The notes under the pieces are model-generated. The model saw only the letters and a program-made list of their open reading frames with translations, was not told the origin of the DNA and made no database searches. DNA of 18,844 nucleotides, taken from the IMG/VR virus record IMGVR_UViG_3300045988_023617, one strand, 5' to 3'. Of this stretch, positions 2,544-18,844 are shown piece by piece (the first letter of the stretch is position 1; every line of letters begins with the position of its first letter). Made by a program: the position numbers and the translations under genes. The stretch comes from a virus.

Positions 2544-2571
2544 CGCGATTGTCCGCACCGTATGATATCAT

Positions 2572-2597
2572 GGCAACGTCCCTATAGGGATGTTGCC
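2572..2597 (+). promoter_or_regulatory. 26-bp near-perfect palindrome GGCAACGTCCCTA/TAGGGATGTTGCC
   Basis: The 13-nt arms are complementary except for one G-T position. It lies in the SSB-TP intergenic region, 6 nt downstream of a TATGAT hexamer (2561-2566). It could be an RNA hairpin or a dimeric protein-binding site. Confidence 0.45.
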
Positions 2598-3624: not shown

Positions 3625-5085
3625 ATGCGAGAGCGTCGAACGGCGGCAACAGACGGCGCAACATTATTGACGGATGACGGTATAACGCCATTGACGGCGA
3701 ACGCCGTCGTTCGCCTTACGATGCTTGACCATCATACGCGCGTATGGTGCGCACATGGATGGCAGGATATCAAGCTAATAGCGGCCGAGCTGTTGAGACG
3801 CCTCCCCCTGCAATCGAATCCGGCCAAGGATGGAGTTTATGGCACTTTTAATATTCGCGGCCACTTCTACAGTTTCCGCGTGCGCATGGGCGGTATCACC
3901 GTGGATTTTCTGGACGTGCGCAATGTCACACGCGACGACGGGCTGAATGTCTCACGTGAAACGTTTGGCGGTGCGGATGACTTGGAAACCACGTGGAACA
4001 TCGCGCAGGAATGCGACGCCCTGAGGCTCAAGGGCACGACCATAGCGTCTATGGCGATGGGCGATTATATCGGGGGAGATTACGCCGGATTCAAACAGCA
4101 CTTTCCGCCATTGGATAAAGCGGAATATCATCGGATGCGCCCCGCATACTATGGGGCGATAGTGTACAGCAGGCCGGGGGAATATCGGGATTGCAAGAGC
4201 TGGGACGTGAACAGCCTCTACCCGAGCGTCATGCGCGACTTTGCCATGCCCGTAGGCGCGCCGATATGGTATGAAGGAAAATATCATGATGATGCTGATT
4301 ATCCGCTGCATATCGATGTTATCTCGTTCGATGCTCGATTGAAGCCGGGGAAAACGGCTACGCTCACGAATATCCTACCCGTATGGGGGTACGAGGGCGA
4401 ACGTATGGACAGCACGTTAGGCGTCGTCACCATGCCAGTGGTCGACGTGGATTGGCAGACCTTGACGGAAAACTATGATGTCCATGCATGGGATTATATA
4501 GGCGGCTGGAAATTCCGTAAATCGCATGGACTCTATTACAACTACGTTGACAAATGGTTCCACGTGAAACAAACCGCAACCGGAGAGCGTCGGCAGATGG
4601 CGAAACTATTGCTTAATTCGTTGGTGGGGAAATTCGGAGCATCGCTTTATCGGCCTATGCTGCACCCGAAACCCTCTGGCGATGGCGGCGTGGATTTTAC
4701 CGTGGATAAACCCGAGTCAACCAACTCACTCGCATGGCTACCCACCGCCGCCTATGTCAACGCCTACGGGAGGCAAATACTGTCACGCGCGATGAATGCG
4801 AACGCCGACCGCGTGCTTTACGCCGATACGGACGGCATGATACTGGACGGACTGGATGCGCCCGCAGATATCGAAATGGACGATAAGAAACTGGGCGCGT
4901 GGAAAAACGACCACACCTATGAAAAACTCCGCATCCTCGGCAATCGCAAATACTGCGGCGCAGAGGAAGACGGCGGCACGGTGATGCGGTTGAGTGGCGT
5001 GCATCGAGCTGCCCCTATCCCCTACGACGACTTTTTGCCGAGGTCACGCCATGTCAACGATGACGGCTGTTTTTTTGTGCTATAA
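3625..5085 (+). CDS. Protein-primed family-B DNA polymerase (phi29 p2-like), compact 486 aa
   Basis: WDVNSLYPSVM (motif A, nt 4201-4233). MPVGAPIWYEGKYHDDADYPLHI matches phi29 LPYGEPIVFEGKYVWDEDYPLHI. AKLLLNSLVGKF (motif B, from about nt 4600). YADTDG (motif C, nt 4819-4836). KKLGAWKNDHTYEKLRILGNRKY (KxY). SD AAGGA lies upstream of the ATG. Confidence 0.95.
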   Translation: MRERRTAATDGATLLTDDGITPLTANAVVRLTMLDHHTRVWCAHGWQDIKLIAAELLRRLPLQSNPAKDGVYGTFNIRGHFYSFRVRMGGITVDFLDVRNVTRDDGLNVSRETFGGADDLETTWNIAQECDALRLKGTTIASMAMGDYIGGDYAGFKQHFPPLDKAEYHRMRPAYYGAIVYSRPGEYRDCKSWDVNSLYPSVMRDFAMPVGAPIWYEGKYHDDADYPLHIDVISFDARLKPGKTATLTNILPVWGYEGERMDSTLGVVTMPVVDVDWQTLTENYDVHAWDYIGGWKFRKSHGLYYNYVDKWFHVKQTATGERRQMAKLLLNSLVGKFGASLYRPMLHPKPSGDGGVDFTVDKPESTNSLAWLPTAAYVNAYGRQILSRAMNANADRVLYADTDGMILDGLDAPADIEMDDKKLGAWKNDHTYEKLRILGNRKYCGAEEDGGTVMRLSGVHRAAPIPYDDFLPRSRHVNDDGCFFVL

Positions 5086-5639: not shown

Positions 5640-7370
5640 ATGGCAACTACGCCAGTGGTGACGCCGAAGCAGCAATTGCGCCCGCTCACCGAATTCAATA
5701 ACGCTCAGATTCTCAACATGATTCGTAACGAGGCTTCGCCGGAATACCAGCGGCGAATGCCCTCGGCCACTCAGATGAACATGGACCGCCAGATGGCTAC
5801 GCTTATGTCTTCCACCCAGCTGAAGAACGAGTTTTATTCGGCGCTGGTGAACCGTATCGGCGGCACCTACGTGAACACATGGCGTTGGAATAATCCTCTC
5901 AGCGTTTTCCAGCGGGCATCGCAGGCGTATGGCGACACGTGGCAGGAAATCGCCGTGGGAATGCCGCTCGCGCAGGTCTATGACCCTGATGCGGAATATC
6001 TCGGCGCGGATAACTTCCGCAAGTGGAAAATCGACGTGGATTCGCTCTATCATCGTCTGGACTTTGCTCACTGGTATCCTGCGACCACGGATGATAAGAC
6101 GCTTCAGCGTGCTTTCACTTCCGAAAACGGTCTGGCCTCGCTCACTTCTCAGATTCTCACATCCTGCTACAATGCGGCTGAGGTTGACTTGTTCGAGGCT
6201 CTGTGCCACCAATTCGTCGAATACGCGAAACTCGGCGGCTATTGGCGTGTCCACATGGACAATGACCTGAACAACATGGGTAGTTCGGAAACGGACGCTC
6301 GCGACATGCTACGCCAGATTCGCGCATGGGCGGACACGCTTAAATTCGTTTCCACCAAGTACAACGCCCGTCACATGCCGACCTTCGCCCGCCCGGACGA
6401 ACTCGTGCTGTTCTGTTCCCCGGAAGTCAAGTCGGCGCTTGACGTGCAGGGCCTCGCCACGGTATTCCAGCGTACCGACGCCGAGCCGACCATCGACCGG
6501 ATTATCGTTATCCCTCAGGACAGGTTCGGCATGGATGGCGTACAGGCCATCCTAACGACCGACAAGTTTCTGATTGACATTCCGGTCATTAACGAAATGA
6601 CTCAGCAGACTAATCCGGTCAACATCAATTCGGTGAACCATTATCTGCATGTCCAACACATCATCTCGGTGTCCGGCTTCGCTCCGGCTGTCATGTTCTG
6701 GACGGGTGCCGGTTCCACCGCGAACGTGGTGACCCCTACCGGCACGCAGGCCGAAGCGCCGAAGTTCCAGCTCAAGCTTGCCATGTATGGCGGCGGTTCG
6801 GAAACTCCGAGCGATGTGGCGCGTGGCGGCGCGGTGCAGGTTACTGCCGACACGACTATCGCTAATGACGGTACCGCCACGTTCCGCTCGGATGCGGTCG
6901 AGTATCGTATCGGTGACACCGCCAAGCCGAAGAGCGATTACACGTATGTCTCGCCTACTGGCGTGCTTGTGGTCGGACTTGACGAACCGAACACCACCAT
7001 CCCGATCACCGCAACCGCATTGTACACGAATCCGGCGACGCCGGAAGTGCCGGGAACCGTGTCCGCGGCTCTGGACGTGCCAGTGGTCGGTGACGGTGTT
7101 ATCGGATTCAATCCGTCCATCATCGCATCCATTGCCGTGACCGTCCCGAACATGATCGTAGGACATACGGCGCAGGCGACTGCCGTGGCGACCATGATTG
7201 ACGGACGCACCGCCGACGTGACCGCACAGGCCGCTTGGACGTCCGGCACTCCGGCGAACGCCACCGTGTCCGAGTCCGGCGTGGTGACTGGCGTCAAGGC
7301 GGGCAGCTCTGACATCGCCGCCACGCTGTTCGGCGTGTCCGGCAAGAAGAGTGTGACCGTGACCGCGTGA
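5640..7370 (+). CDS. Major capsid protein (phi29 gp8-like) with C-terminal Ig-like (Big_2-type) domain
   Basis: [20 protein letters not shown] resembles gp8 [32 protein letters not shown] resembles NDFITSLVDRIG. NNPLSVF resembles [20 protein letters not shown] resembles IYNSAEVDEYEYM. The C-terminus ([68 protein letters not shown]) is a typical Big_2 pattern, and a second beta-rich segment precedes it. Strong SD GGAAGGAAGGA. Confidence 0.92.
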   Translation: [576 protein letters not shown]

Positions 7371-7376
7371 TATAAT
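7368..7376 (+). promoter_or_regulatory. Extended -10 promoter (TGATATAAT) overlapping the capsid stop codon
   Basis: The TGA stop (7368-7370) supplies the TGn of a perfect TGnTATAAT. A 105-nt structured leader follows, up to the tail-knob ATG. Confidence 0.5.
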
Positions 7377-7422
7377 GGGAGGGTAGCCGGTTGGCTACTC
7401 TCTCTCACGGTGTGATGCAAGA

Positions 7423-7463
7423 CAAGGCCCGGAGCGCAATCCACGTGATTGCTCCGGGCCTTG
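7423..7463 (+). promoter_or_regulatory. Strong hairpin between capsid and tail-knob genes (attenuator or RNA-stability element)
   Basis: CAAGGCCCGGAGC (7423-7435) pairs perfectly with GCTCCGGGCCTTG (7451-7463), 13 bp, plus an inner AATC/GATT stem. The apex contains CACGTG. No T run follows. A smaller hairpin GTAGCC-GGTT-GGCTAC lies at 7383-7398. Confidence 0.5.
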
Positions 7464-7481
7464 CCATACCGGAGGACAATA

Positions 7482-9809
7482 ATGATTGACGACGCGAACC
7501 CTTACGTAGAATCTAATTTTTCTTGGGCGGAATGGACACCGAACACGACACTGAAACTCTGCCGAGTGCCGTGGGATGCTTCATACCGTGATATCGTGCG
7601 GTTTGTTTCACGTGAAACGCAGCGAGAATGGTTCGACAAACTGGACGGCGTGGAATGCCGTCCGGCCACTATGCATATTTTCAACGCGCCCGCCCGCGTC
7701 GAACTGCCGTTTAACGAAGCATCGAACTGGAATTATCTTGTAGCCTATAACGACTACCCCGAATTGGAGGGGCCTCGCGCGTGGTATTACTTCATTCAGC
7801 GCGTCGAATACGTCAACGCCCATTGCACGCAATTGGTCTTGATGCTGGACGTGTGGCAGAGTTTCCAGCACGACGTCACATTCGGTAGCTGCTATGTGAC
7901 GCGCGGTCATATCGGCGTCGCCAACGAACGCCAGTGGAATGACTATGGGCGCACATATCTGGCGCTCCCGGAGGGCTTGGATACCGGAAGTGAAATGGTC
8001 ACAACGTCACAGGAATATCAGAGCATTATCGAAGGACGGCATTATGACATAGATGGCGGTGCCGTCGATTGGGTCGATTACGGTTTGATTGTGGTCAGCA
8101 CCACTAATCTCACCGACGACCCCGGCAGCACGTCCGAACCAAAGCTTACCACCGCAACCGGGGCCATCTTCGAGCAGGAGACGGACGGCTGTTCTGTCTA
8201 CTATTGTGAAAACCGAATGGCGTATGTCGCCAACATCATGGCCCTTGGCACGCTGTTCCCGTGGATAACGCAAGGTATTTGCGCCGTCTACATGGTGCCG
8301 AAAATTCCACAGGATTACGTGAGCCGATATGGGCATAGGGTTACGGAGATTTACGGGCAGCCAGTGTCAGAGGAATACGGCAACATTTATTCTTTTAATT
8401 CCTCTCTCGATTCGGACTTACGCTACGAGGATGTTATGTCCGTTGCGAACTTTCGCAATAAATTCAACATCCCCGCCCGATACCGGAATCTGCGCAAGCT
8501 CTATTGTTATCCGTTCTGCGTTATAGAATGCAGCTGTCTGAACGGCACGGTCATTACTTATCGACCTGAAGATATTCAATCCGATACGCTCACTGTCCGT
8601 GAAACCTACACTTACGCGCCGTCCGGTGCAAGAATCAATTTCTACATTCCCGGCTACAATGAGGCTGGAGCGACTACTACGGTCCCGCTGCGTATCGACG
8701 GCAAAGACATGGGGCTACCGATAGACGGCGGCGAAATGCTCAACGCAAGTTTCGGTATCACCAATTTGCCTCACTTTTCAGTGGTCAACAATGGTGGCGC
8801 GCTGGCTATGGCGAACAGCGCGTACACCCGCGCCTACGCGCAGGAGTCAGCCCAATGGACCAGGCAAAAGGCTTTAACTTCGGCTAACGTGGTCAACTCC
8901 AATGCCGCATTACAGCGCGAATACGCCACACGGCAAACCAATTGGGCAAACGAGAATCGGACGGCAACCAACGCCATCACTGCAAACTCGCTAAACCAGT
9001 CCCTTGCCATCGGACAGAATCAGACCAGCCAGATGGCTAATCTCCAAGTGGAGCAAAATATCAAGAGCAACAATCTCAACGGTATGGCCGGTATCATCGG
9101 GGGGGGACTGAACGCCGTCGCATCCCGCAGTCCATTGGGTGCGGTGAACGCGGTTGGCGGCGCGTTCCTCGGCTCCGCACATACGGACATCGCCAATTAC
9201 GGCATCAATTCGTCTGCCGCTGTCTCCAATTCCACGGCGGCGGCGAATACGGCGAATCAGATTGCCACCAATGCGGCGGCCACGTCGCAGGCCAACGCCT
9301 ACGCAAGCGGAGCGACCGCACTGGGCAACCAGCTGAACGCCGTCGTGTCGCAGGCGAATTACGGACTGGCCTCATATGCGGCTCAAGGTGATTACCAAAA
9401 CGCCATCGCCGGAATTAACGCTCAGGTGCAGCAGATGCAACTGACTCCGCCAACCACTTCGGGAGCGCTCGGCGGTGACATGTTCAACTTAAGCAACGGA
9501 ATTATGGGCGTGTTGGTGCGGTTCAAAACGTGTGCGCCGAGCGCGTTGAGGGCGGCAGGTGAATACATGCTACGCTATGGGTATTTTGTCCAGCGATTCG
9601 TCACCCCTCCCGCCTCACTGGAATGCATGGAGAAATTCACGTTCTGGCAGATGCAGGAGGCGTATGTGCGGGGCACGCTGCCTGAAGAATACCGACTGAC
9701 AATCAAAGGTATGTTTGAACGTGGTGTGACGGTTTGGGACAAGCCCGAGTATATCGGCGTGACTGACTGGGCTGACAATGAGCCACTTCCGGGCATTGGT
9801 TACGAGTGA
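7482..9809 (+). CDS. Tail knob / distal tube protein (phi29 gp9-like)
   Basis: The track ORF begins at TTG 7449, inside the hairpin. ATG 7482 has GGAGGA 5 nt upstream and gives 775 aa. [28 protein letters not shown] resembles gp9 [41 protein letters not shown] resembles [25 protein letters not shown] resembles [23 protein letters not shown]...GVTVWD resembles KYGYKINR...GITLWH. Confidence 0.88.
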   Translation: [775 protein letters not shown]

Positions 9810-9815
9810 TATAAT
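9807..9815 (+). promoter_or_regulatory. Extended -10 promoter (TGATATAAT) overlapping the tail-knob stop; 6 nt upstream of the portal ATG
   Basis: The TGA stop (9807-9809) is the TGn of a perfect TGnTATAAT. The hexamer ends at 9815 and the portal ATG starts at 9822. No SD lies between them. Confidence 0.55.
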
Positions 9816-9821
9816 GGCAGT

Positions 9822-10772
9822 ATGAGTAGGTCTAAAAAGAATCGAGTTGGCGGCGCGTTGCACCCACGTGGCAATTACGCGAAAACACGCGCCGTCACGC
9901 TTGATGACATGTATCTTCATTTGCTGATGGAACTCGCACTGAACCGTTTCAGCTGGCGCGGATTACCGCCCACTGTAGACGAACGTTGGCTGGAAATATG
10001 TCTGTGCGAATACGGATGCGCGTTGTTTTTCGAGGATAAGCGTATCGGCAGGTTCCTTGTGACTCAGGCAGGTTATCAAGGCAGATTGAACGTGTATAAT
10101 AATCCGACATGTTTCGAGCCGGTAGGCGTCAACTACCACTACAAGCAGCTCAAGGCCGGTTCGGAATGCATCCCTATCTGGGATAATCGAATGCGCGTCG
10201 GATTCAAGCCGACGTTATGGCAGTACGCGCGGCGCCTCGCCGACATTGACAAGGCGTATGACGTGAATCTGGAGAGTCTGAAGCTGCCGACCATCATCAC
10301 TGCCGACCCTCGCACCAAGCTCACCGTGCAGAACATGCTTCAACAACGGCAGGACGGTCAGGATTATATTATCGGATACGATTCGCTTGACCCCGGCAGC
10401 TCGTTCCAGCCGTGGCCGAACACAACGCCTTATCTGTTGGACAAGTTCGTCCAGCAAAAAGCGCAAGTGACTAATGAGGTGTTGGGATATCTCGGCATTC
10501 AATCGTCCGGCACGGAGAAAAAGGAACGGCTTATTTCCGATGAGGTGGCGCAAGCCAATGAGAAAGTAGACGTGTTCCGCTTGAGTTTCCTCAAGGCGCG
10601 GCAGACTGCGGCGACTGAGATTAACCGATTGTGGCCGCAACTGAACGTGTGGGTGGAGTATGCGGACGCGCAAAGCTCCGGCGTGCCCAACGCGCTTGAT
10701 TCAAGCGCAGGCGGCACTACGGACATCGATATGCCCGCATCGTACGACGCGGGTATCGGAGGGGTATTATGA
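9822..10772 (+). CDS. Portal / upper collar connector protein (phi29 gp10-like)
   Basis: 316 aa. LALNRFSWRGLPPTV resembles gp10 LAYQLFEWENLPPTI. GTEKKERLISDEV resembles NLEKKERMVTDEV. Basic N-terminus, as in gp10. No SD is present, so this is a candidate leaderless gene. Confidence 0.9.
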   Translation: MSRSKKNRVGGALHPRGNYAKTRAVTLDDMYLHLLMELALNRFSWRGLPPTVDERWLEICLCEYGCALFFEDKRIGRFLVTQAGYQGRLNVYNNPTCFEPVGVNYHYKQLKAGSECIPIWDNRMRVGFKPTLWQYARRLADIDKAYDVNLESLKLPTIITADPRTKLTVQNMLQQRQDGQDYIIGYDSLDPGSSFQPWPNTTPYLLDKFVQQKAQVTNEVLGYLGIQSSGTEKKERLISDEVAQANEKVDVFRLSFLKARQTAATEINRLWPQLNVWVEYADAQSSGVPNALDSSAGGTTDIDMPASYDAGIGGVL

Positions 10773-12725: not shown

Positions 12726-14660
12726 ATGGCTACCGTATACAGTAAAACCGATAATTACGGGCTTAATTTGTATGGCGACAATGACCCAGCCGATTTAAGG
12801 GACGGCTACAATGGCTCCATGCACACCATTGACGATACGCTCGGAAAGCACCTTAACCGAATCGAAGGTGTCGAGTCGCGTGAAACGCATGATGAGGAAG
12901 TGGTCAAAGCGCTGATTGGTGATAACACGGTTGACAGCGCCACCGCATCGAAAGCCAAATGGGATAAATCGATTACAGACGCCGCCGCCGCAACCGCCGC
13001 CGCCGCAGCCGCAGCAGGTAAGGCGGACGACAATACCGCGATTCTCTCCGCGTTGGGAGCCGACACCACGGCAAACGCCACCGCCAATAAAACCAAATGG
13101 GATAAAGCGGGAGCGGACGCAGCGACAGCCATAGGCAAGGCTGACAACAATAAAACAATTCTTACCGCACTTGGGGCAGGCTCAACCGTTGACGCCACGA
13201 CGCAAAAAACCAAACTGGACAACACCGCCACCAAGGTGGACGAGCTTGCGAACGCGCGCGTGGACAGCAAGCTTGACTCGCACTTCATCATCCATGCGCA
13301 CCGTGGTTCCTACCGTTTTCCCGAAAACACAATGGAAGGGATTATGTGGGCGGTACGTCACGGATATATACCTGAAATCGACGTGCAACTCACGTCGGAC
13401 GGCGTGCCCGTAATCCTACACGACACCTCCACCGCCCGCACGATGACGGGGACGGCAGCTAACGTTTCATCCATCACTTACGCCGATTTTATGTCACGTG
13501 AAGTCAAAGCCAAGGTTCACGGCGGCAACACCGGCAAGCCAGTGAGTATGGAACAGGTGCTACAGGCTGTGGGGGATAGTCCCGTCGATTTTGAAATCAA
13601 GTCATTGACCAACGAAACTACGGACGCAATGCTGGAACTACTGCGAAAGTATAGCGCCACCGCAATCCACGAAGTGACTTCGTTCAGCTGGGAACAGTGC
13701 GTCCGCGCCGTGCAAGGGGGCATAAAATACGTTTCGTGGACGTGGGACGCTAACGCCATGCCACATTCTTGGGCTGACATGAAGAATGCCGGTATTTTCT
13801 GCGGAAACCCGCGTGAAGACAAACTCACTTCGGCAATGGTCAGCGCCGCACACTCGGCTGGCGTCAAGATTAATCCGTGGCTTATTAATGATCCCGTGGC
13901 ATATGAGCGAGTCACCGCGCTTGGAGTTGATGGCATTACCTCCAATTGGCCGGATTACGCCAGTGGACAGTTGGAGCGCAACTTCACGCCATTCAGCACG
14001 GGACAGAACGTTTTCATGCGTCCGAACTATGCCCCACAAGGCGGCACGGTATCACAGGAAATATCGGAAGCGGTTAGGGCGAAAAGCTCGTATCTCGCAC
14101 CGGACGGACTTTTCCAACTCGGAGACGCGGACTCTCAGATGCTAGTGGAATTGGTTGAGTGCGGCACGGTGACGCTGCCGGTCAGTATCGACCTTGAAGG
14201 GTTTGAGTCTCGCGTTCAGATTGGCGAGAATGGCGAGACGAAGAACATTGCAGTAATCGCAGTGAAGGAGTCAACCCCTATCGGCCAATTCAACGACGTG
14301 GCAACGGCTGGACAGGTCGGTATCATTGCGGGCGTTCGACGTAACGGTGCTACATTCGGCGGTTTTTATCAAGACAATGTGACGACGGTTGCCTTCGATA
14401 ATACCCCCGCAGTGTCTCCATCTGTGCCAAACGACAAAGCCGTAGGTGTGCATGCGTCCTTCGTTCTCGACCGTGACCACGCTCGAATCATTTGGGCGTA
14501 TTCCAATGGACAATCAGGTGATGTGACCACAGGAGATAATAAGGGCGTCACGTTGCCGGATACCGATAAATACCGTCTGTTTATCCGCCTTGCTCGCAAT
14601 TTTAAGAGCGCATGGAAAATTAGGGTACGCCCCTCTGATGGTTATCTCTACGAGAACTGA
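12726..14660 (+). CDS. Tail appendage / receptor-binding protein with glycerophosphodiester phosphodiesterase (GDPD) domain
   Basis: 644 aa. It carries the shared N-terminal module (KTDNYGLNLYGDNDPADLRDGYNGSMHTIDDTLGKHLNRI) and ~40-aa repeats with an Ala run. The GDPD signature is HAHRGSYRFPENTMEG...EIDVQLTSDGVPVILHD...INPWLINDP...GVDGITSNWPD (approx nt 13281-13955). A ~230-aa C-terminal domain of unknown fold follows. Confidence 0.85.
   Translation: MATVYSKTDNYGLNLYGDNDPADLRDGYNGSMHTIDDTLGKHLNRIEGVESRETHDEEVVKALIGDNTVDSATASKAKWDKSITDAAAATAAAAAAAGKADDNTAILSALGADTTANATANKTKWDKAGADAATAIGKADNNKTILTALGAGSTVDATTQKTKLDNTATKVDELANARVDSKLDSHFIIHAHRGSYRFPENTMEGIMWAVRHGYIPEIDVQLTSDGVPVILHDTSTARTMTGTAANVSSITYADFMSREVKAKVHGGNTGKPVSMEQVLQAVGDSPVDFEIKSLTNETTDAMLELLRKYSATAIHEVTSFSWEQCVRAVQGGIKYVSWTWDANAMPHSWADMKNAGIFCGNPREDKLTSAMVSAAHSAGVKINPWLINDPVAYERVTALGVDGITSNWPDYASGQLERNFTPFSTGQNVFMRPNYAPQGGTVSQEISEAVRAKSSYLAPDGLFQLGDADSQMLVELVECGTVTLPVSIDLEGFESRVQIGENGETKNIAVIAVKESTPIGQFNDVATAGQVGIIAGVRRNGATFGGFYQDNVTTVAFDNTPAVSPSVPNDKAVGVHASFVLDRDHARIIWAYSNGQSGDVTTGDNKGVTLPDTDKYRLFIRLARNFKSAWKIRVRPSDGYLYEN
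12927..13250 (+). repeat. In-frame ~40-aa tandem repeats (about 2.5 copies) in the fiber shaft
   Basis: The units are SATASKAKWDKSITDAAAATAAAAAAAGKADDNTAILSALGA, TANATANKTKWDKAGADAATAIGKADNNKTILTALGA, and the partial VDATTQKTKLDNTATKVDEL. Confidence 0.75.
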
Positions 14661-14676
14661 TGGACTATTTTAAGCG

Positions 14677-14709
14677 ATAGCCATGCTGCTATAATAGCAG
14701 CATGGCTAT
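14677..14709 (+). promoter_or_regulatory. Perfect 33-nt palindrome containing an extended -10 box (TGCTATAAT, 14687-14695) and the ATG of the tail-lysin gene
   Basis: ATAGCCATGCTGCTAT-A-ATAGCAGCATGGCTAT has 16-nt arms with no mismatch. TATAAT (14690-14695) straddles the centre. ATG 14702 is in the 3' arm, exactly 6 nt after the hexamer. TACTTTTG follows the palindrome. Confidence 0.6.
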
Positions 14710-15940
14710 TACTTTTGATGATTGGGTTAAGCAGACACAAGACCGATATTGGGATATGGATGGCGCATACGGTGCGCAGTGCTGGGACCTATGGGCCAAG
14801 TATAGTATGGACATGTATGGTCTGAGCGTTCAAGACTGCATCACCCCCACCGGCTATGCCGAGGGATGCTATACGAGGTTCCCCTACACCGCCGCACTCG
14901 GCAACGTGTATGAGAAAATGGACTCCAATTATACGCCAGTTAAGGGTGACGTGGTTTTTTGGACATTCGGCGGTCAAATCTACACTGGCTCCCATGTCGC
15001 AATCGTATGGGGTGGCGTCACTGGCGATAATATCGATGTTCTAACACAAAATCCCACTCCGGCAGTTCATCAAACCTTGCCACTCTTGCGCGGTTCGCAG
15101 CTGCTCGGCTACCTGCATCCCAAGAACTTGCAGCCGGGCGGCACGACGCCGGATAATCCGAACGGCGGCAATCCCACGGGTGGGGATAATCAAGGTTCGG
15201 GCGTGTCTGGCGGTTCGTCCGCATGGATACAGCAACAGGGCGATAATTTGATATACCATTACGGCTCGCGTAGTGGCGGCATGTCGGCGTTGTTCGTCAA
15301 GACTACCGCGCAGAATTGGATATATCGCGGCGCGTCCGGCACGGGTGCGCCGGATGGAGACGGCGGGCAATCGTCGCCCAGTGTAGGCGACGGCGAGTCA
15401 AGTTATGCGCTTTATGTGGTGGGCACGGTTGAATCATCATTGCGATGGGATGCGGTAGAGCCTAATCGCCAAGGCATCGGCATTGCGCAATGGAGTTTCG
15501 GCCGCCGCCTGCAAGTACTGAACGCGATGAAGACGGTTGACGCTGATGGATACCGGACGTTCGCCGCCGCCGCGCCGGACATTGTCGCGCTTATGGACTC
15601 GGGCGGCACGTTTGACAGGGCAATGACCGGTAGTGAGGTTGCTGCGTTCCAGACGTGGGCACGTCGTCCTCAGTCTCATGCGGGTCAACGCGCTCAGTTC
15701 GCTACGGATTACGAGGGCTATCCGCAAAAATACGACGACGCGAAGATGCAAATACTGTGGACTTGCGCATATCATCAATCTCCCGCAGGTGCGTTGAACG
15801 TGCCGACCGCGACCACGCTTGCGGGGTTGCGTGACAACATTCTAGCCACATCCCCGTTCGGACCATATGGCACGCGATATCAGGCCGCCTATAGCTTGCT
15901 GAACGTCTGGGATGGGAAGAGTGCGCCGCCAAACTTTTAA
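14702..15940 (+). CDS. Tail-associated peptidoglycan hydrolase: N-terminal CHAP endopeptidase/amidase + C-terminal phi29 gp13-type lysozyme-like domain
   Basis: 412 aa. CHAP signature: DMDGAYGAQCWDL (Cys27), GSHVAIVWGG (His98), VLTQNP (Asn117). A Gly/Asn/Pro linker covers aa ~145-175. C-terminal VVGTVESSLRWDAVEPNRQGIGIAQWS resembles gp13 GNMQSESTINPGLW...GFGLVQWT, with a putative catalytic Glu in GTVES. It occupies the phi29 gene 13 position, after the appendage gene. Confidence 0.8.
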   Translation: MAITFDDWVKQTQDRYWDMDGAYGAQCWDLWAKYSMDMYGLSVQDCITPTGYAEGCYTRFPYTAALGNVYEKMDSNYTPVKGDVVFWTFGGQIYTGSHVAIVWGGVTGDNIDVLTQNPTPAVHQTLPLLRGSQLLGYLHPKNLQPGGTTPDNPNGGNPTGGDNQGSGVSGGSSAWIQQQGDNLIYHYGSRSGGMSALFVKTTAQNWIYRGASGTGAPDGDGGQSSPSVGDGESSYALYVVGTVESSLRWDAVEPNRQGIGIAQWSFGRRLQVLNAMKTVDADGYRTFAAAAPDIVALMDSGGTFDRAMTGSEVAAFQTWARRPQSHAGQRAQFATDYEGYPQKYDDAKMQILWTCAYHQSPAGALNVPTATTLAGLRDNILATSPFGPYGTRYQAAYSLLNVWDGKSAPPNF

Positions 15941-15946
15941 CAAGTG

Positions 15947-15955
15947 TGCTATACT
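15947..15955 (+). promoter_or_regulatory. Extended -10 promoter (TGCTATACT), 6 nt upstream of the ATPase ATG
   Basis: TGn + TATACT ends at 15955 and the ATG is at 15962. There is no SD before either ATG 15962 or the track's GTG 15944. Confidence 0.5.
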
Positions 15956-15961
15956 GGACAC

Positions 15962-17065
15962 ATGGGTGACATTAACGTGCTTAATGAGAATGATTATTAT
16001 GACTATGGTAGAGCATTGTCTTATCATAGTCCTTGGATGTTCGTAATCGGAGCACGTGGCCTCGGGAAAACCTATGGCGCTAAAAAATTGGTTATCGGTG
16101 ATTGGATTAAGAAACGCTGGCAATTCATTTATCTACGCCGGACAGCAGAGGAACAGAAGAATAAGGGCACATGGTTTGCAGACGTCGCGGAGCAATACCC
16201 GGAACTGGAATTTAGAGTGTCCGGGAATCAGGCCGAATGTCACTGGCTGGATGACAGGGACGCAACCGCAGACAAGCATGGCAAGAGCCGTGCGACATGG
16301 CATGTCATGGGGTATTTTATCGCCCTATCGCAAGCTGGACAGGTGAAATCGGTTGCCTACCCTAAAGTACGAACTATTATCTTCGACGAAATATTCCCCG
16401 ACAATATGCGCTATCTCGGCGGAGAAGTTACGGCGCTTGAGGAATTTTACAACACGGTTGACCGTTGGAACGATAGGGTTCGCGTTATCATGTGCAGCAA
16501 CGCCGTAACGTTGGCTAACCCGTATTTCAGCGCGTTTAATATCAACCTAAAACCGCAGTTGGATAATCACACACAATATCAGCGATATTGTGACGGGTTC
16601 ATCATGGTGGAATTGGCCGATTACGGCGGATTCAGTGCCAAGGTTGCCACATCTAAATTCGGACAGTTTTTACGCAGGTATGACGAAAATTATGCGAATT
16701 ATGCAATCAATAATAATTTTAGAGATAATGCCAATGCTCTCATTAGTGATTTTAATAACGCCGGTTATGCGTTCACATTAAGAACCACTGAATACGGCGT
16801 TTTCAACGTTTATCAACAACTAAGCGATACCGATGAAGTATTGTATCTCATCACAAAAAAACAACCTAAAATCACAAGGGATTTTACATTTGACTATCGA
16901 CTGGTCGATAACGATTGTATGATGCTCAAACGTTCGGACGACATGACCCAGAAAATATTAAACGCCTATCGCGTCGGTAGATTACGGTTCGAGACTCCGC
17001 AAATTAAGGCGGAATTCAGTATGATTCTTGGCGGCTTGTTGCAACAATCAGGCATAAGAAAGTGA
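15962..17065 (+). CDS. DNA encapsidation (packaging) ATPase, phi29 gp16-like
   Basis: The track ORF starts at GTG 15944; ATG 15962 gives 367 aa. LSYHSPWMFVIGARGLGKTYGAKK resembles gp16 LSYDRILNFVIGARGIGKSYAMK (Walker A). QFIYLRRT resembles QFIYVRRY. TIIFDEIF resembles TIVFDEFI (Walker B). RVIMCSNAVTLANPYF resembles RCICLSNAVSVVNPYF. RVGRLRFE resembles MNGYLRFD. Confidence 0.93.
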   Translation: MGDINVLNENDYYDYGRALSYHSPWMFVIGARGLGKTYGAKKLVIGDWIKKRWQFIYLRRTAEEQKNKGTWFADVAEQYPELEFRVSGNQAECHWLDDRDATADKHGKSRATWHVMGYFIALSQAGQVKSVAYPKVRTIIFDEIFPDNMRYLGGEVTALEEFYNTVDRWNDRVRVIMCSNAVTLANPYFSAFNINLKPQLDNHTQYQRYCDGFIMVELADYGGFSAKVATSKFGQFLRRYDENYANYAINNNFRDNANALISDFNNAGYAFTLRTTEYGVFNVYQQLSDTDEVLYLITKKQPKITRDFTFDYRLVDNDCMMLKRSDDMTQKILNAYRVGRLRFETPQIKAEFSMILGGLLQQSGIRK

Positions 17066-18374: not shown

Positions 18375-18632
18375 TCAATCGCCGTTGTCAACCGAGACAA
18401 CATACGTACGGCACGGGCGACCCTTCTTAGACAAACACCGCCTGGTTTCAACGTAATCATAATCGTAGCTCAAAGAAAGTTCGATAACCGCTGCAAGAGC
18501 GGACTCGAACGTAATAACACTATCATCAAAACGACCATTATCACGAACGGGAGTCTTGAGCACGCCTTCAATACAAACTTCGTACCAATTGTCCTCTTCA
18601 AGTTCGATAACATAAGCGTTAAAATTAATCAT
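18375..18632 (-). CDS. Right terminal early protein, 85 aa, acidic, unknown function; start codon lies inside the ITR
   Basis: The only credible minus-strand gene. The ATG (complement of 18630-18632) and its SD are ITR sequence. It ends 5 nt before the bidirectional terminator region. Confidence 0.65.
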   Translation of the reverse strand: MINFNAYVIELEEDNWYEVCIEGVLKTPVRDNGRFDDSVITFESALAAVIELSLSYDYDYVETRRCLSKKGRPCRTYVVSVDNGD

Positions 18633-18844
18633 TTTATTTTTTTCCTTTCCCTATCGGTTGATACTCACATCATACCACACACCAAAAACAACACACCCAA
18701 AACACACAAAAAAACAACACAAAAAAACCCCACCACAACCACAACCACCAACAATACAAGCAAGAACACACAACGCAAAAGAAAACACAAACACATAACA
18801 GAGCGGTTGTGGAAAAAGGCTAGTGGCTGGGGCCCCTCCCCTCC
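18629..18844. repeat. Right inverted terminal repeat (216 bp)
   Basis: Exact reverse complement of 1..216. It contains the mirror copies of the extended -10 box, the SD-like GGAAAGG and the ATG that opens ORF 18375..18632 (-). Confidence 0.97.
18669..18677 (-). promoter_or_regulatory. Extended -10 promoter (TGGTATGAT on the minus strand) inside the right ITR, firing inward
   Basis: Mirror copy of 168-176, with the same distance to the ATG of the right terminal gene. Confidence 0.5.

Follow-up and report, generated by a model that had tools for sequence, protein, structure and literature searches.

A conserved sense-strand hairpin interleaved with a predicted leaderless promoter at the fibre/lysin junction of a phi29-like podovirus

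At the junction between the fibre gene and the tail-associated lysin gene of a phi29-like podovirus, a predicted RNA hairpin encloses both a -10 promoter box and the lysin start codon. Judged from the pattern of change among related junctions, this hairpin is genuine and is kept by selection for sense-strand pairing. We favour, with a probability of about 0.55, the reading that it is interleaved with a host-type -10 box for a leaderless lysin mRNA and that it would bury the lysin AUG on RNA initiated upstream.

Results

Genome context and features of the junction

The window (the whole stretch of DNA analysed, 18,844 bp) is the complete linear genome of a phi29-like podovirus, with inverted terminal repeats of ~215 bp at its ends. 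Nearly all of its genes lie on the + strand. The gene set comprises SSB, type-B DNA polymerase, capsid, tail, portal, GDPD fibre, lysin, gp16-type packaging ATPase, holin, and amidase. Bifidobacterium phage BP1 is the nearest cultured relative, and the hosts of all cultured phages with a related lysin are Bifidobacterium or other Actinobacteria.

The two genes at the junction had been named fiber gene and tail lysin in the initial annotation. The former encodes a GDPD-domain protein. For the latter, a CHAP domain was found together with a phage-tail-lysozyme match below the threshold. A PDB sequence search with the lysin gave weak CHAP matches and nothing else. Its homologues in Arthrobacter phages are annotated as minor tail protein, and separate holin and amidase genes lie downstream of the lysin gene. 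The features of the junction are as follows:

12726..14660, + strand: fibre/appendage gene from the ORF list, 644 aa (Pfam GDPD, 9.5e-24)
14677..14692, + strand: 5' arm of the palindrome, ATAGCCATGCTGCTAT, non-coding
14687..14695, + strand: extended -10 element TGCTATAAT at the hairpin apex
14690-14695, + strand: TATAAT hexamer at the hairpin apex
A14693: centre of the palindrome
14694..14709, + strand: 3' arm, ATAGCAGCATGGCTAT, which holds the 6-nt spacer, the ATG, and lysin codons 2-3
14702-14704, + strand: lysin start codon ATG, inside the 3' arm
14702..15940, + strand: tail-associated lysin gene, 412 aa (Pfam CHAP, 3.5e-6; Phage_lysozyme2 sub-threshold)
14710..14717, + strand: U-rich tail TACTTTTG, lysin codons 3-5, candidate terminator U-tract

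A perfect 33-nt palindrome with 16-nt arms had been described here, and this was confirmed, as the arms are exact reverse complements. TATAAT lies at the apex, ATG 14702 in the 3' arm, and TACTTTTG directly after the palindrome, all as annotated. The mirror ATG at 14683 (ATG CTG CTA TAA) is also present, but its three-codon reading frame is not conserved, as the 5'-arm ATG, at alignment pair 34-53, is ATA in 19 of 42 relatives.

With loops of up to 9 nt, the longest perfect inverted repeat is 16 nt at this site versus 9 nt in the rest of the window. In 100 dinucleotide-preserving shuffles, the longest one measured 7-11 nt, and the analytic expectation for a perfect inverted repeat of 16 nt is ~4e-5. 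The RNA fold of the palindrome region has an energy of -33.4 kcal/mol (z = -6.4), which was equalled by none of 200 shuffles. As a loop of 1 nt is impossible, the predicted hairpin has a 3-nt loop, and TATAAT is partly within the stem in this genome. The stem consists of 15 palindrome pairs plus G14676·U14710. Seven of these 16 pairs are G-C, and the stem-loop begins 16 nt past the fibre stop codon. Including an outer extension, the stem reaches ~21 bp in the window. The computed energy of the stem over AUG 14702 is -28 to -33 kcal/mol.

Further copies of the half-site were not found in the window when up to 3 mismatches were allowed; TCACGTGA palindromes are weakly enriched. In the Rfam search, the sole match was to the IBV D-RNA family, on the - strand; it scored below the threshold and is attributable to chance. 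A second hairpin with an ATG in its stem is located at 2572-2597, and no relatives of it were present among the loci fetched.

Conservation of the stem in clade A

For comparison, we collected 80 loci from IMG/VR by lysin protein and 42 stretches by a scan that was anchored on the coding N-terminus only. The 43 distinct junctions which share the lysin N-terminus of the window are referred to as clade A. The stem is present in 42 of them, with locus L103 as the exception. Across these 42 junctions, the 12-pair core stem is 98% paired in the alignment, and changes on both sides occur in 6 of the 12 core pairs; as the junction sequences are related by descent, cell counts overstate the number of independent events. 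None of 500 shuffles matched the clade A covariation score. When the pairing partners were slid by 1-3 columns, pairing fell to 24-50%.

Clade A shows hardly any change in the outer 8 bp (ATAGCCAT/ATGGCTAT). The inner 4-6 bp co-vary and occur as GCTGC/GCAGC, GCCAC/GTGGC, ATCCT/AGGAT, ACCG/CGGT, and ACAC/GTGT. Compensation extends into the coding sequence. In L072, lysin codon 2 is changed from GCT to ACT, and this is mirrored in the 5' arm by a change from AGCC to AGTC (AGTC/GACT). In L075 and L073, codon 2 is changed from GCT to GCC, mirrored by ATAGCC to ATGGCC (ATGGCC/GGCCAT). All variants have predicted folds of -18 to -32 kcal/mol. The outer extension, 14672-14676 with 14710-14714, is only 59% paired in relatives and hence lies outside the conserved structure.

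The loop of the relatives measures 6-8 nt and encloses the entire hexamer. The closest relatives (L118, L086, L123) have an identical 5' arm and G·U pairs in the 3' arm. By this comparison, the perfect symmetry of the arms is a derived state of the window genome. BP1, which infects B. pseudocatenulatum U19, bears the clade A hairpin as ATAGCCATATCGCC-TATAAT-GGTGATATGGCTAT with one G·U pair. In the BP1 record, PQ571273, the lysin ATG is located at 4292 on the - strand.

Other hairpin families at the same junction

Clade B: The 39 junctions of this clade carry an unrelated GC-rich hairpin, ATACCCCGTCCGG-TACG-CCGGRCGGGGTAT, or have CCACGGC/GCCGTGG as the inner stem instead. Fold energies are mostly -21 to -33 kcal/mol. 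The hairpin stops within the first three bases of TATACT, and the ATG is unpaired.

Third family: In L057 and L068, the arms are TTAATGCCATGTGACT, the apex is the -10-like TAAAAT, and the ATG is again within the 3' arm.

Single loci: In L103, the clade A 5' arm is swapped for AAAGCCCCTAGG...CCTAGGGGCTTT, and TATAAT-N6-ATG is retained. This replacement hairpin is near-identical to the terminator at the right end of the window. Hairpin and -10-N6-ATG unit are separate from each other in L048 and L013. At this junction, the B. dentium phage BD811P1 also has a hairpin, and the gene behind it starts with an ordinary Shine-Dalgarno sequence.

The hairpin thus lies 5' of the -10 box and leaves the ATG unoccluded in clade B, L103, L048, and L013. 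On this comparative evidence, the hairpin and the -10-N6-ATG unit are separable parts. Since not all architectures occlude the ATG, the hairpin would have had a different ancestral role. As the hairpin stands beside the promoter or ahead of a Shine-Dalgarno start in other clades, it would predate the clade A arrangement. Most simply, it was originally a partial terminator or 3'-end stabiliser at the fibre 3' end. In clade A, the hairpin has merged with the promoter and extends over the first 8 coding nt.

Strand bias of the non-Watson-Crick pairs

Read on the sense strand, the non-Watson-Crick cells of the clade A stem are G·T in 45 cases versus A·C in 9. The corresponding numbers are 30 versus 1 in clade B, where covariation figures are understated since its two inner-stem registers were scored with one structure string. 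Over both clades, the ratio is 75 to 10. In clade B, pair 15-29 passes through U·G, C-G, and U-A. The excess of G·T on the sense strand argues for an RNA stem and not for an operator in double-stranded DNA. Operators and templated palindrome repair both predict no strand bias, and hence the asymmetry counts against each of them.

Promoter and leaderless start

Positions T1, A2, A4, and T6 of the hexamer are invariant across the 42 clade A relatives. This pattern of conservation is that of a -10 box, not that of an arbitrary loop. The spacing from the -10 to the ATG is mostly 6 nt in clade A (7-8 in a few members) and 6 nt in 39 of 39 aligned clade B junctions. Most clade A members are without the TG of an extended -10, and a -35 is not conserved.

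TAYAMT-N6-ATG occurs 4 times in the window versus 0.46 expected, always on the + strand, and 0 of 200 shuffles reached this number. Three of the four matches are gene starts without a Shine-Dalgarno sequence, namely portal, lysin, and ATPase, and each of these reads TGnTAYAMT, exactly 6 nt, ATG. TGnTAYAMT alone has 9 matches versus 1.6 expected; the coding (+) strand has 8 of them, most of which lie at gene boundaries. Pairing with the anti-Shine-Dalgarno sequence was calculated for 21 gene starts. At most of them, it is -7 to -12.7 kcal/mol, i.e., a clear Shine-Dalgarno sequence is present. The values for portal and ATPase are -3.1 and -3.0 kcal/mol, respectively, and the lysin start is the weakest of all with +1.3 kcal/mol. 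The two sister units are:

9807..9824, + strand: portal start, TGATATAAT-N6-ATG, without Shine-Dalgarno sequence and without hairpin
15947..15964, + strand: packaging ATPase start, TGCTATACT-N6-ATG, with ATG 15962

At portal, lysin, and ATPase, the hexamer and the spacing are kept in relatives while the N6 varies. The portal unit is conserved with variable N6 in L095, L103, L105, L110, L118, and L123; a sister clade starts the homologous portal gene with an AAGGA Shine-Dalgarno sequence. The ATPase unit is conserved in L001-L004, L050, and L051. Instead, a hairpin, TTTT, and an AGGAGGG Shine-Dalgarno sequence stand at the ATPase start of clade A genomes.

An in-frame TAG at 14696-14698 excludes a lysin start upstream of ATG 14702. 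The predicted transcription start is A14702, 7 nt past the last T of the -10 box and 3' of the entire 5' arm. Lysin mRNA from the internal promoter is, from these features, probably leaderless. In Bifidobacterium pseudolongum, leaderless transcripts account for ~15% of the mapped start sites (PMC4782308).

Terminator component

The palindrome site is the top terminator-like match in a scan of the window. As in a terminator, a G+C-containing stem-loop directly follows a gene. Of the 8 bases of the tail UACUUUUG, 5 are U, and synonymous change in this tail is constrained in clade A: the lysin codons ATT, ACT, and TTT are 86-95% fixed versus 33-47% at downstream four-fold sites. The lysin tail TTACTTTTG resembles the tail CTTTACTTTTT of the terminal terminator, and the L048 hairpin is followed by ACTTTATTATC. 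The clade B equivalent, ACUAAUAUCAU, is U-poor. The constraint on codons 3-5 could alternatively reflect needs of a leaderless 5' end and not a U-tract. In clade B, codon 2 is strongly conserved though unpaired. A hairpin at 7423-7463, downstream of a promoter-like box, has no U-tract, and hence the hairpins of this genome are not all terminators.

Taken together, the suggestion in the initial annotation that the stem acts as a terminator is plausible and moderately supported. The constrained U-rich tail and the terminator-like hairpin of L103 speak for it, and the U-poor tail of clade B speaks against it. With its U-rich tail, the hairpin is probably a partial terminator or a 3'-end stabiliser of the fibre message.

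Module boundary

Genomes with unrelated fibre genes match the window from 14673-14679 onward. Matches to fibre plus junction come from L123, L105, and L086 and run to 14767; from 14711 onward, the lysin body is matched by another clade (L001-L004, L050, L051). As homology switches at the hairpin, a recombination boundary is located there, and the window is recombinant across it.

Discussion

Proposed mechanism

In the favoured reading, long transcripts from upstream promoters would cross the fibre gene and carry both arms of the hairpin. Candidates for these promoters are the extended -10 boxes at 7368, 9807, and 11521, and the terminator scan found no strong terminator between these boxes and 14676. 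On the long transcripts, 14676-14710 would fold into the ~16-bp hairpin. The lysin AUG, base-paired and without a Shine-Dalgarno sequence, would then stay untranslated. The folded stem would probably also attenuate transcription or protect the 3' end of the fibre message. RNA polymerase at TGCTATAAT is expected, from the geometry and the recurrence of the unit, to start at A14702. The short RNA made in this way would be without the 5' arm and hence without a stem, would have the AUG first, and would be translated as a leaderless mRNA. By these steps, the internal promoter, rather than the heavily transcribed structural operon, would determine lysin output. Lysin dosage would be uncoupled from the abundant fibre message, which is plausible for a low-copy tail-tip enzyme.

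In the initial annotation, two parts had already been combined: an RNA stem by which the ATG is occluded on read-through transcripts, and an internal promoter for leaderless mRNA. Covariation, the G·U bias, the recurrent -10-N6-ATG unit, and the enrichment of extended -10 elements support this combination, but not every member of this phage family occludes the ATG.

Alternative explanations

The main alternative, which we hold to be rather unlikely, is that the hairpin is only an intercistronic element of the fibre 3' end, i.e., a partial intrinsic terminator or a barrier against 3'-exonucleases. Clade A would have compacted it onto the adjoining leaderless promoter. Burial of the AUG would then be a by-product of no use for regulation: lacking a Shine-Dalgarno sequence, an AUG in a polycistronic RNA would be poorly translated anyway. 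A hairpin is present at the junction in every architecture, including those with a free ATG and the Shine-Dalgarno start of BD811P1, the L103 replacement matches the terminal terminator, and homology with genomes carrying other fibres starts exactly at the 5' edge of the palindrome, which all fits this explanation. It does not account for the non-coding arm of clade A, which stays complementary to the ATG and codons 2-3 by means that include compensatory changes. Moreover, a stem of -20 to -32 kcal/mol over the AUG would necessarily block initiation on any RNA containing it, and the U-tract of clade B is weak. An explanation without an internal promoter is improbable. TATAAT would be a conserved loop, and the long late transcript would be translated after melting or cleavage of the hairpin (e.g., by RNase III, with a 5' end near the AUG). 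This would agree with the missing -35 and extended -10 TG in most clade A members and with the ~21-bp stem of the window, but the outer extension of the latter is poorly paired in relatives (59%). The hexamer is conserved in the manner of a -10 box, with T1, A2, A4, and T6 invariant, and its spacing to the ATG is held at 6-8 nt in clade A and 6 nt in aligned clade B, whether it is in the loop or outside the hairpin. TAYAMT-N6-ATG also recurs at portal and ATPase, both without Shine-Dalgarno sequence and hairpin, and the extended -10 motif is enriched and strand-biased genome-wide.

A double-stranded DNA operator for a dimeric regulator of phage or host, overlapping the lysin promoter, had been considered in the initial annotation; it found no support and is very unlikely. 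The perfectly symmetric arms of this genome and the conserved outer 8-bp half-sites of clade A would suit such an operator, and there is a precedent in phi29, where the regulator p4 binds inverted repeats at promoters. Instead of symmetric fixed half-sites repeated at promoters, we found one genomic site, even with 3 mismatches, and inner arms which covary and vary freely provided that pairing is kept. The G·T mismatches are strand-asymmetric and not favoured at a site in double-stranded DNA, three unrelated arm sequences share a common architecture, and pairing with the coding ATG GCT AT accounts for the outer half-site. As weak evidence, a Pfam search for a regulator among the early genes recognised SSB and DNA polymerase and no DNA-binding domain. 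Even more doubtful is a neutral, mutational origin, by which a quasi-palindrome was perfected by templated (hairpin-primed) repair during strand-displacement replication and persists at the fibre/lysin recombination boundary. Mutation by templated correction is known for quasi-palindromes, the window is recombinant across the site, and the arms are perfect in this genome only. Against this origin, 42 diverged junctions and two further hairpin families have kept their pairing, and G·U is tolerated where A·C is not; from templated repair, one would expect perfectly Watson-Crick arms without a strand bias. The least credible explanation is a structure in DNA, in which a cruciform or single-stranded hairpin presents the -10 in its loop as a -35-independent promoter, as for the virion RNA polymerase of phage N4. 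The -10 is in the loop and a conserved -35 is missing in clade A, and protein-primed replication exposes single strands. Yet clade B, L103, and L048 have the -10 outside the hairpin, a hairpin is missing from the portal and ATPase units, and the G·U bias is in keeping with RNA. Moreover, the - strand would be the one more often displaced at this position (14.7 of 18.8 kb).

Significance

As a tentative extension, 'hairpin + -10 + N6 + ATG' may be a portable bifunctional cassette, in which the ~33-nt stem attenuates the fibre transcript, silences the lysin AUG on read-through, and carries a -35-independent leaderless promoter. If so, the dosage of lysin, portal, and ATPase would be insulated from the structural operon. 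As the cassette lies exactly at the homology boundary, Bifidobacterium podophages could then swap receptor-binding modules without rewiring downstream expression.

If the favoured mechanism is confirmed, it would be the first translational gate by promoter choice outside T4-like phages and the first that uses a host-type -10 and leaderless mRNA. The setting would be a group of human-gut Bifidobacterium phages. Small phi29-like genomes of Actinobacteria phages would set the dosage of structural genes via internal leaderless promoters, versus one late operon in phi29. Start-codon calls would be corrected, e.g., to ATG 15962 for the ATPase, and a very compact insulator/promoter/leaderless-start part would become available for Bifidobacterium engineering. 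With BP1, a cultured phage bearing the clade A hairpin is available, which makes experiments practical.

Comparison with known systems

T4 gene e: The initial annotation regarded this kind of switch as not described before, which is wrong. The T4 genes e, soc, 49, and I-TevI have early transcripts on which the translation start is locked in a hairpin, and RNA from a late promoter within this hairpin can be translated (PMC3014915). As in gene e, a stable RNA helix is predicted here to bury the start codon on long transcripts, and a candidate promoter lies within the sequence that encodes the structure, so that its transcripts would be without the 5' strand and translatable. The gated gene is a cell-wall hydrolase in both cases, and the structure is conserved among related phages. 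The arrangement of hairpin and late promoter at gene e was reportedly described by McPheeters et al. in 1986. T4 differs in that it uses its own late sigma factor gp55 and a TATAAATA promoter, whereas a host-type (extended) -10 stands at the apex here. The short T4 transcript keeps a leader with a Shine-Dalgarno sequence; here, there is no Shine-Dalgarno sequence, and the transcript is predicted to be leaderless from the AUG. The upstream transcripts are early messages in T4 and structural-gene messages here, which suggests control of dosage rather than timing. Unlike in T4, the hairpin may additionally terminate transcription.

Leaderless genes: In actinobacterial leaderless genes, the start codon follows a -10 (TANNNT) at a distance of 6-8 nt and lacks a Shine-Dalgarno sequence; both features are found at the lysin start. 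In phage lambda, promoter choice decides whether the cI mRNA is leaderless, which is the case when it is made from PRM, and promoter choice would have the same effect here. However, ordinary leaderless genes and lambda cI are not known to be enclosed in a hairpin by which their AUG is shut off on longer RNAs. Unlike ordinary leaderless genes, the three units of the window are embedded in a phage structural operon.

Overlapping terminators: In compact genomes, Rho-independent terminators may overlap the next promoter. As in these, a stem-loop is located directly past the stop codon and is followed by a U-rich tract, and L103 has swapped in a canonical terminator hairpin. In contrast to them, the short U-tract UACUUUUG is part of the following coding sequence and is missing from clade B, and the promoter -10 is in the loop and not downstream.

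In the literature on phages and Bifidobacterium, we found no description of a hairpin combined with a leaderless internal promoter. By comparison of the sequences with these systems, the logic is the known one of T4, and the new features are the host-type -10 in the loop, the predicted leaderless product, the likely terminator role, and the context of dosage.

Start codons with hairpins or −10-like boxes

ATPase gene: For the packaging ATPase, the probable start codon is ATG 15962, where the arrangement TGCTATACT-N6-ATG (a putative promoter −10, 6 nt, and the start codon, read as a leaderless start) is found and is kept in relatives (window 15944–15964). GTG 15944, the first in-frame start, is less likely to be the true one.

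Fiber gene: TACAAT-N6-ATG also occurs in frame within the GDPD fiber gene (window 12807–12821, codon 32). Leaderless initiation at this internal site could yield a fiber protein with a shortened N-terminus, or the match could be a chance occurrence.

339-aa gene: A second hairpin holding an ATG lies at window 2562–2597 (GGCAACGUCCC-UAUA-GGGAUGUUGCC, −20.6 kcal/mol). ATG 2590 in its 3′ arm is the start of a 339-aa gene at the terminal-protein position; a Shine-Dalgarno sequence is almost absent there, and a palindromic −10-like box, TGATATCA, is located just upstream. No relatives for judging conservation were found among the retrieved loci.

Region after the capsid gene: In window 7368–7484, the capsid stop codon is followed by the promoter-like box TGATATAAT, a hairpin, GGAGGA, and ATG 7482. 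The hairpin (7423–7463), which has a perfect 13-bp stem without a U-tract and sits downstream of the box, resembles an element of a 5′-UTR or of RNA processing more than it does a terminator.

Minus strand of the lysin hairpin: Owing to the perfect symmetry of the palindrome at 14677–14709, a mirror TGCTATTAT-N6-ATG is found on the − strand (window 14683–14699), where it opens into a 4-codon ORF. Only this genome has the symmetric pseudo-promoter, which could fire antisense into the fiber gene.

Lysin and ATPase junctions in related loci

In locus L103, the MAITFDDW reading frame ends after 14 codons (L103 5135–5179). The stop codon of this frame overlaps the start codon, ATG 5172, of a lysin that lacks CHAP (MDNTAYFAMYVIG, resembling B. 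dentium phage BD811P1). The short frame may be a leaderless mini-ORF that is translationally coupled to the lysin; alternatively, it may reflect an assembly error.

A second conserved cassette occupies the lysin-to-ATPase junction in L041, L008, and other loci of clade B, the group whose GC-rich hairpin before the lysin gene is unrelated to that of the window. It consists of a 30-nt near-perfect palindrome, GACAGACCGGTAGATATCTACCGGTCTGTC, and then TGGTATAAT-N7-ATG. At the same junction, clade A, which shares the lysin N-terminus of the window, has a hairpin (GGAGGGCGTGCG...CGCACGCCCTCC), TTTT, and the Shine-Dalgarno sequence AGGAGGG.

The palindrome TCACGTGA, often lengthened to GTTTCACGTGAAAC, is repeated in the window at 3952, 7608, and 13494 (3 matches against 0.46 expected; at least 3 in 4 of 200 shuffles). 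It adjoins the 5′ side of the junction hairpin in many clade B relatives and could serve for protein binding or methylation.

Promoter-like motifs across the genome

The window covers a whole linear genome, whose inverted terminal repeats are each about 215 bp long (1–215 and 18630–18844). The early genes are driven outward-in by the extended −10 of each repeat, both being predicted promoters:

168–176, + strand, extended −10 TGGTATGAT in the left terminal repeat
18669–18677, − strand, extended −10 TGGTATGAT in the right terminal repeat

The extended −10 TGnTAYAMT is strongly enriched in the window (9 matches against 1.6 expected) with a coding-strand bias, and most matches are at gene boundaries:

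3511, 5078, 6165, 7368, 9807, 11521, 14687, and 15947, + strand, TGnTAYAMT matches

Enrichment and strand bias of this motif suggest many internal promoters instead of one late operon, whereas phi29 has a single late operon.
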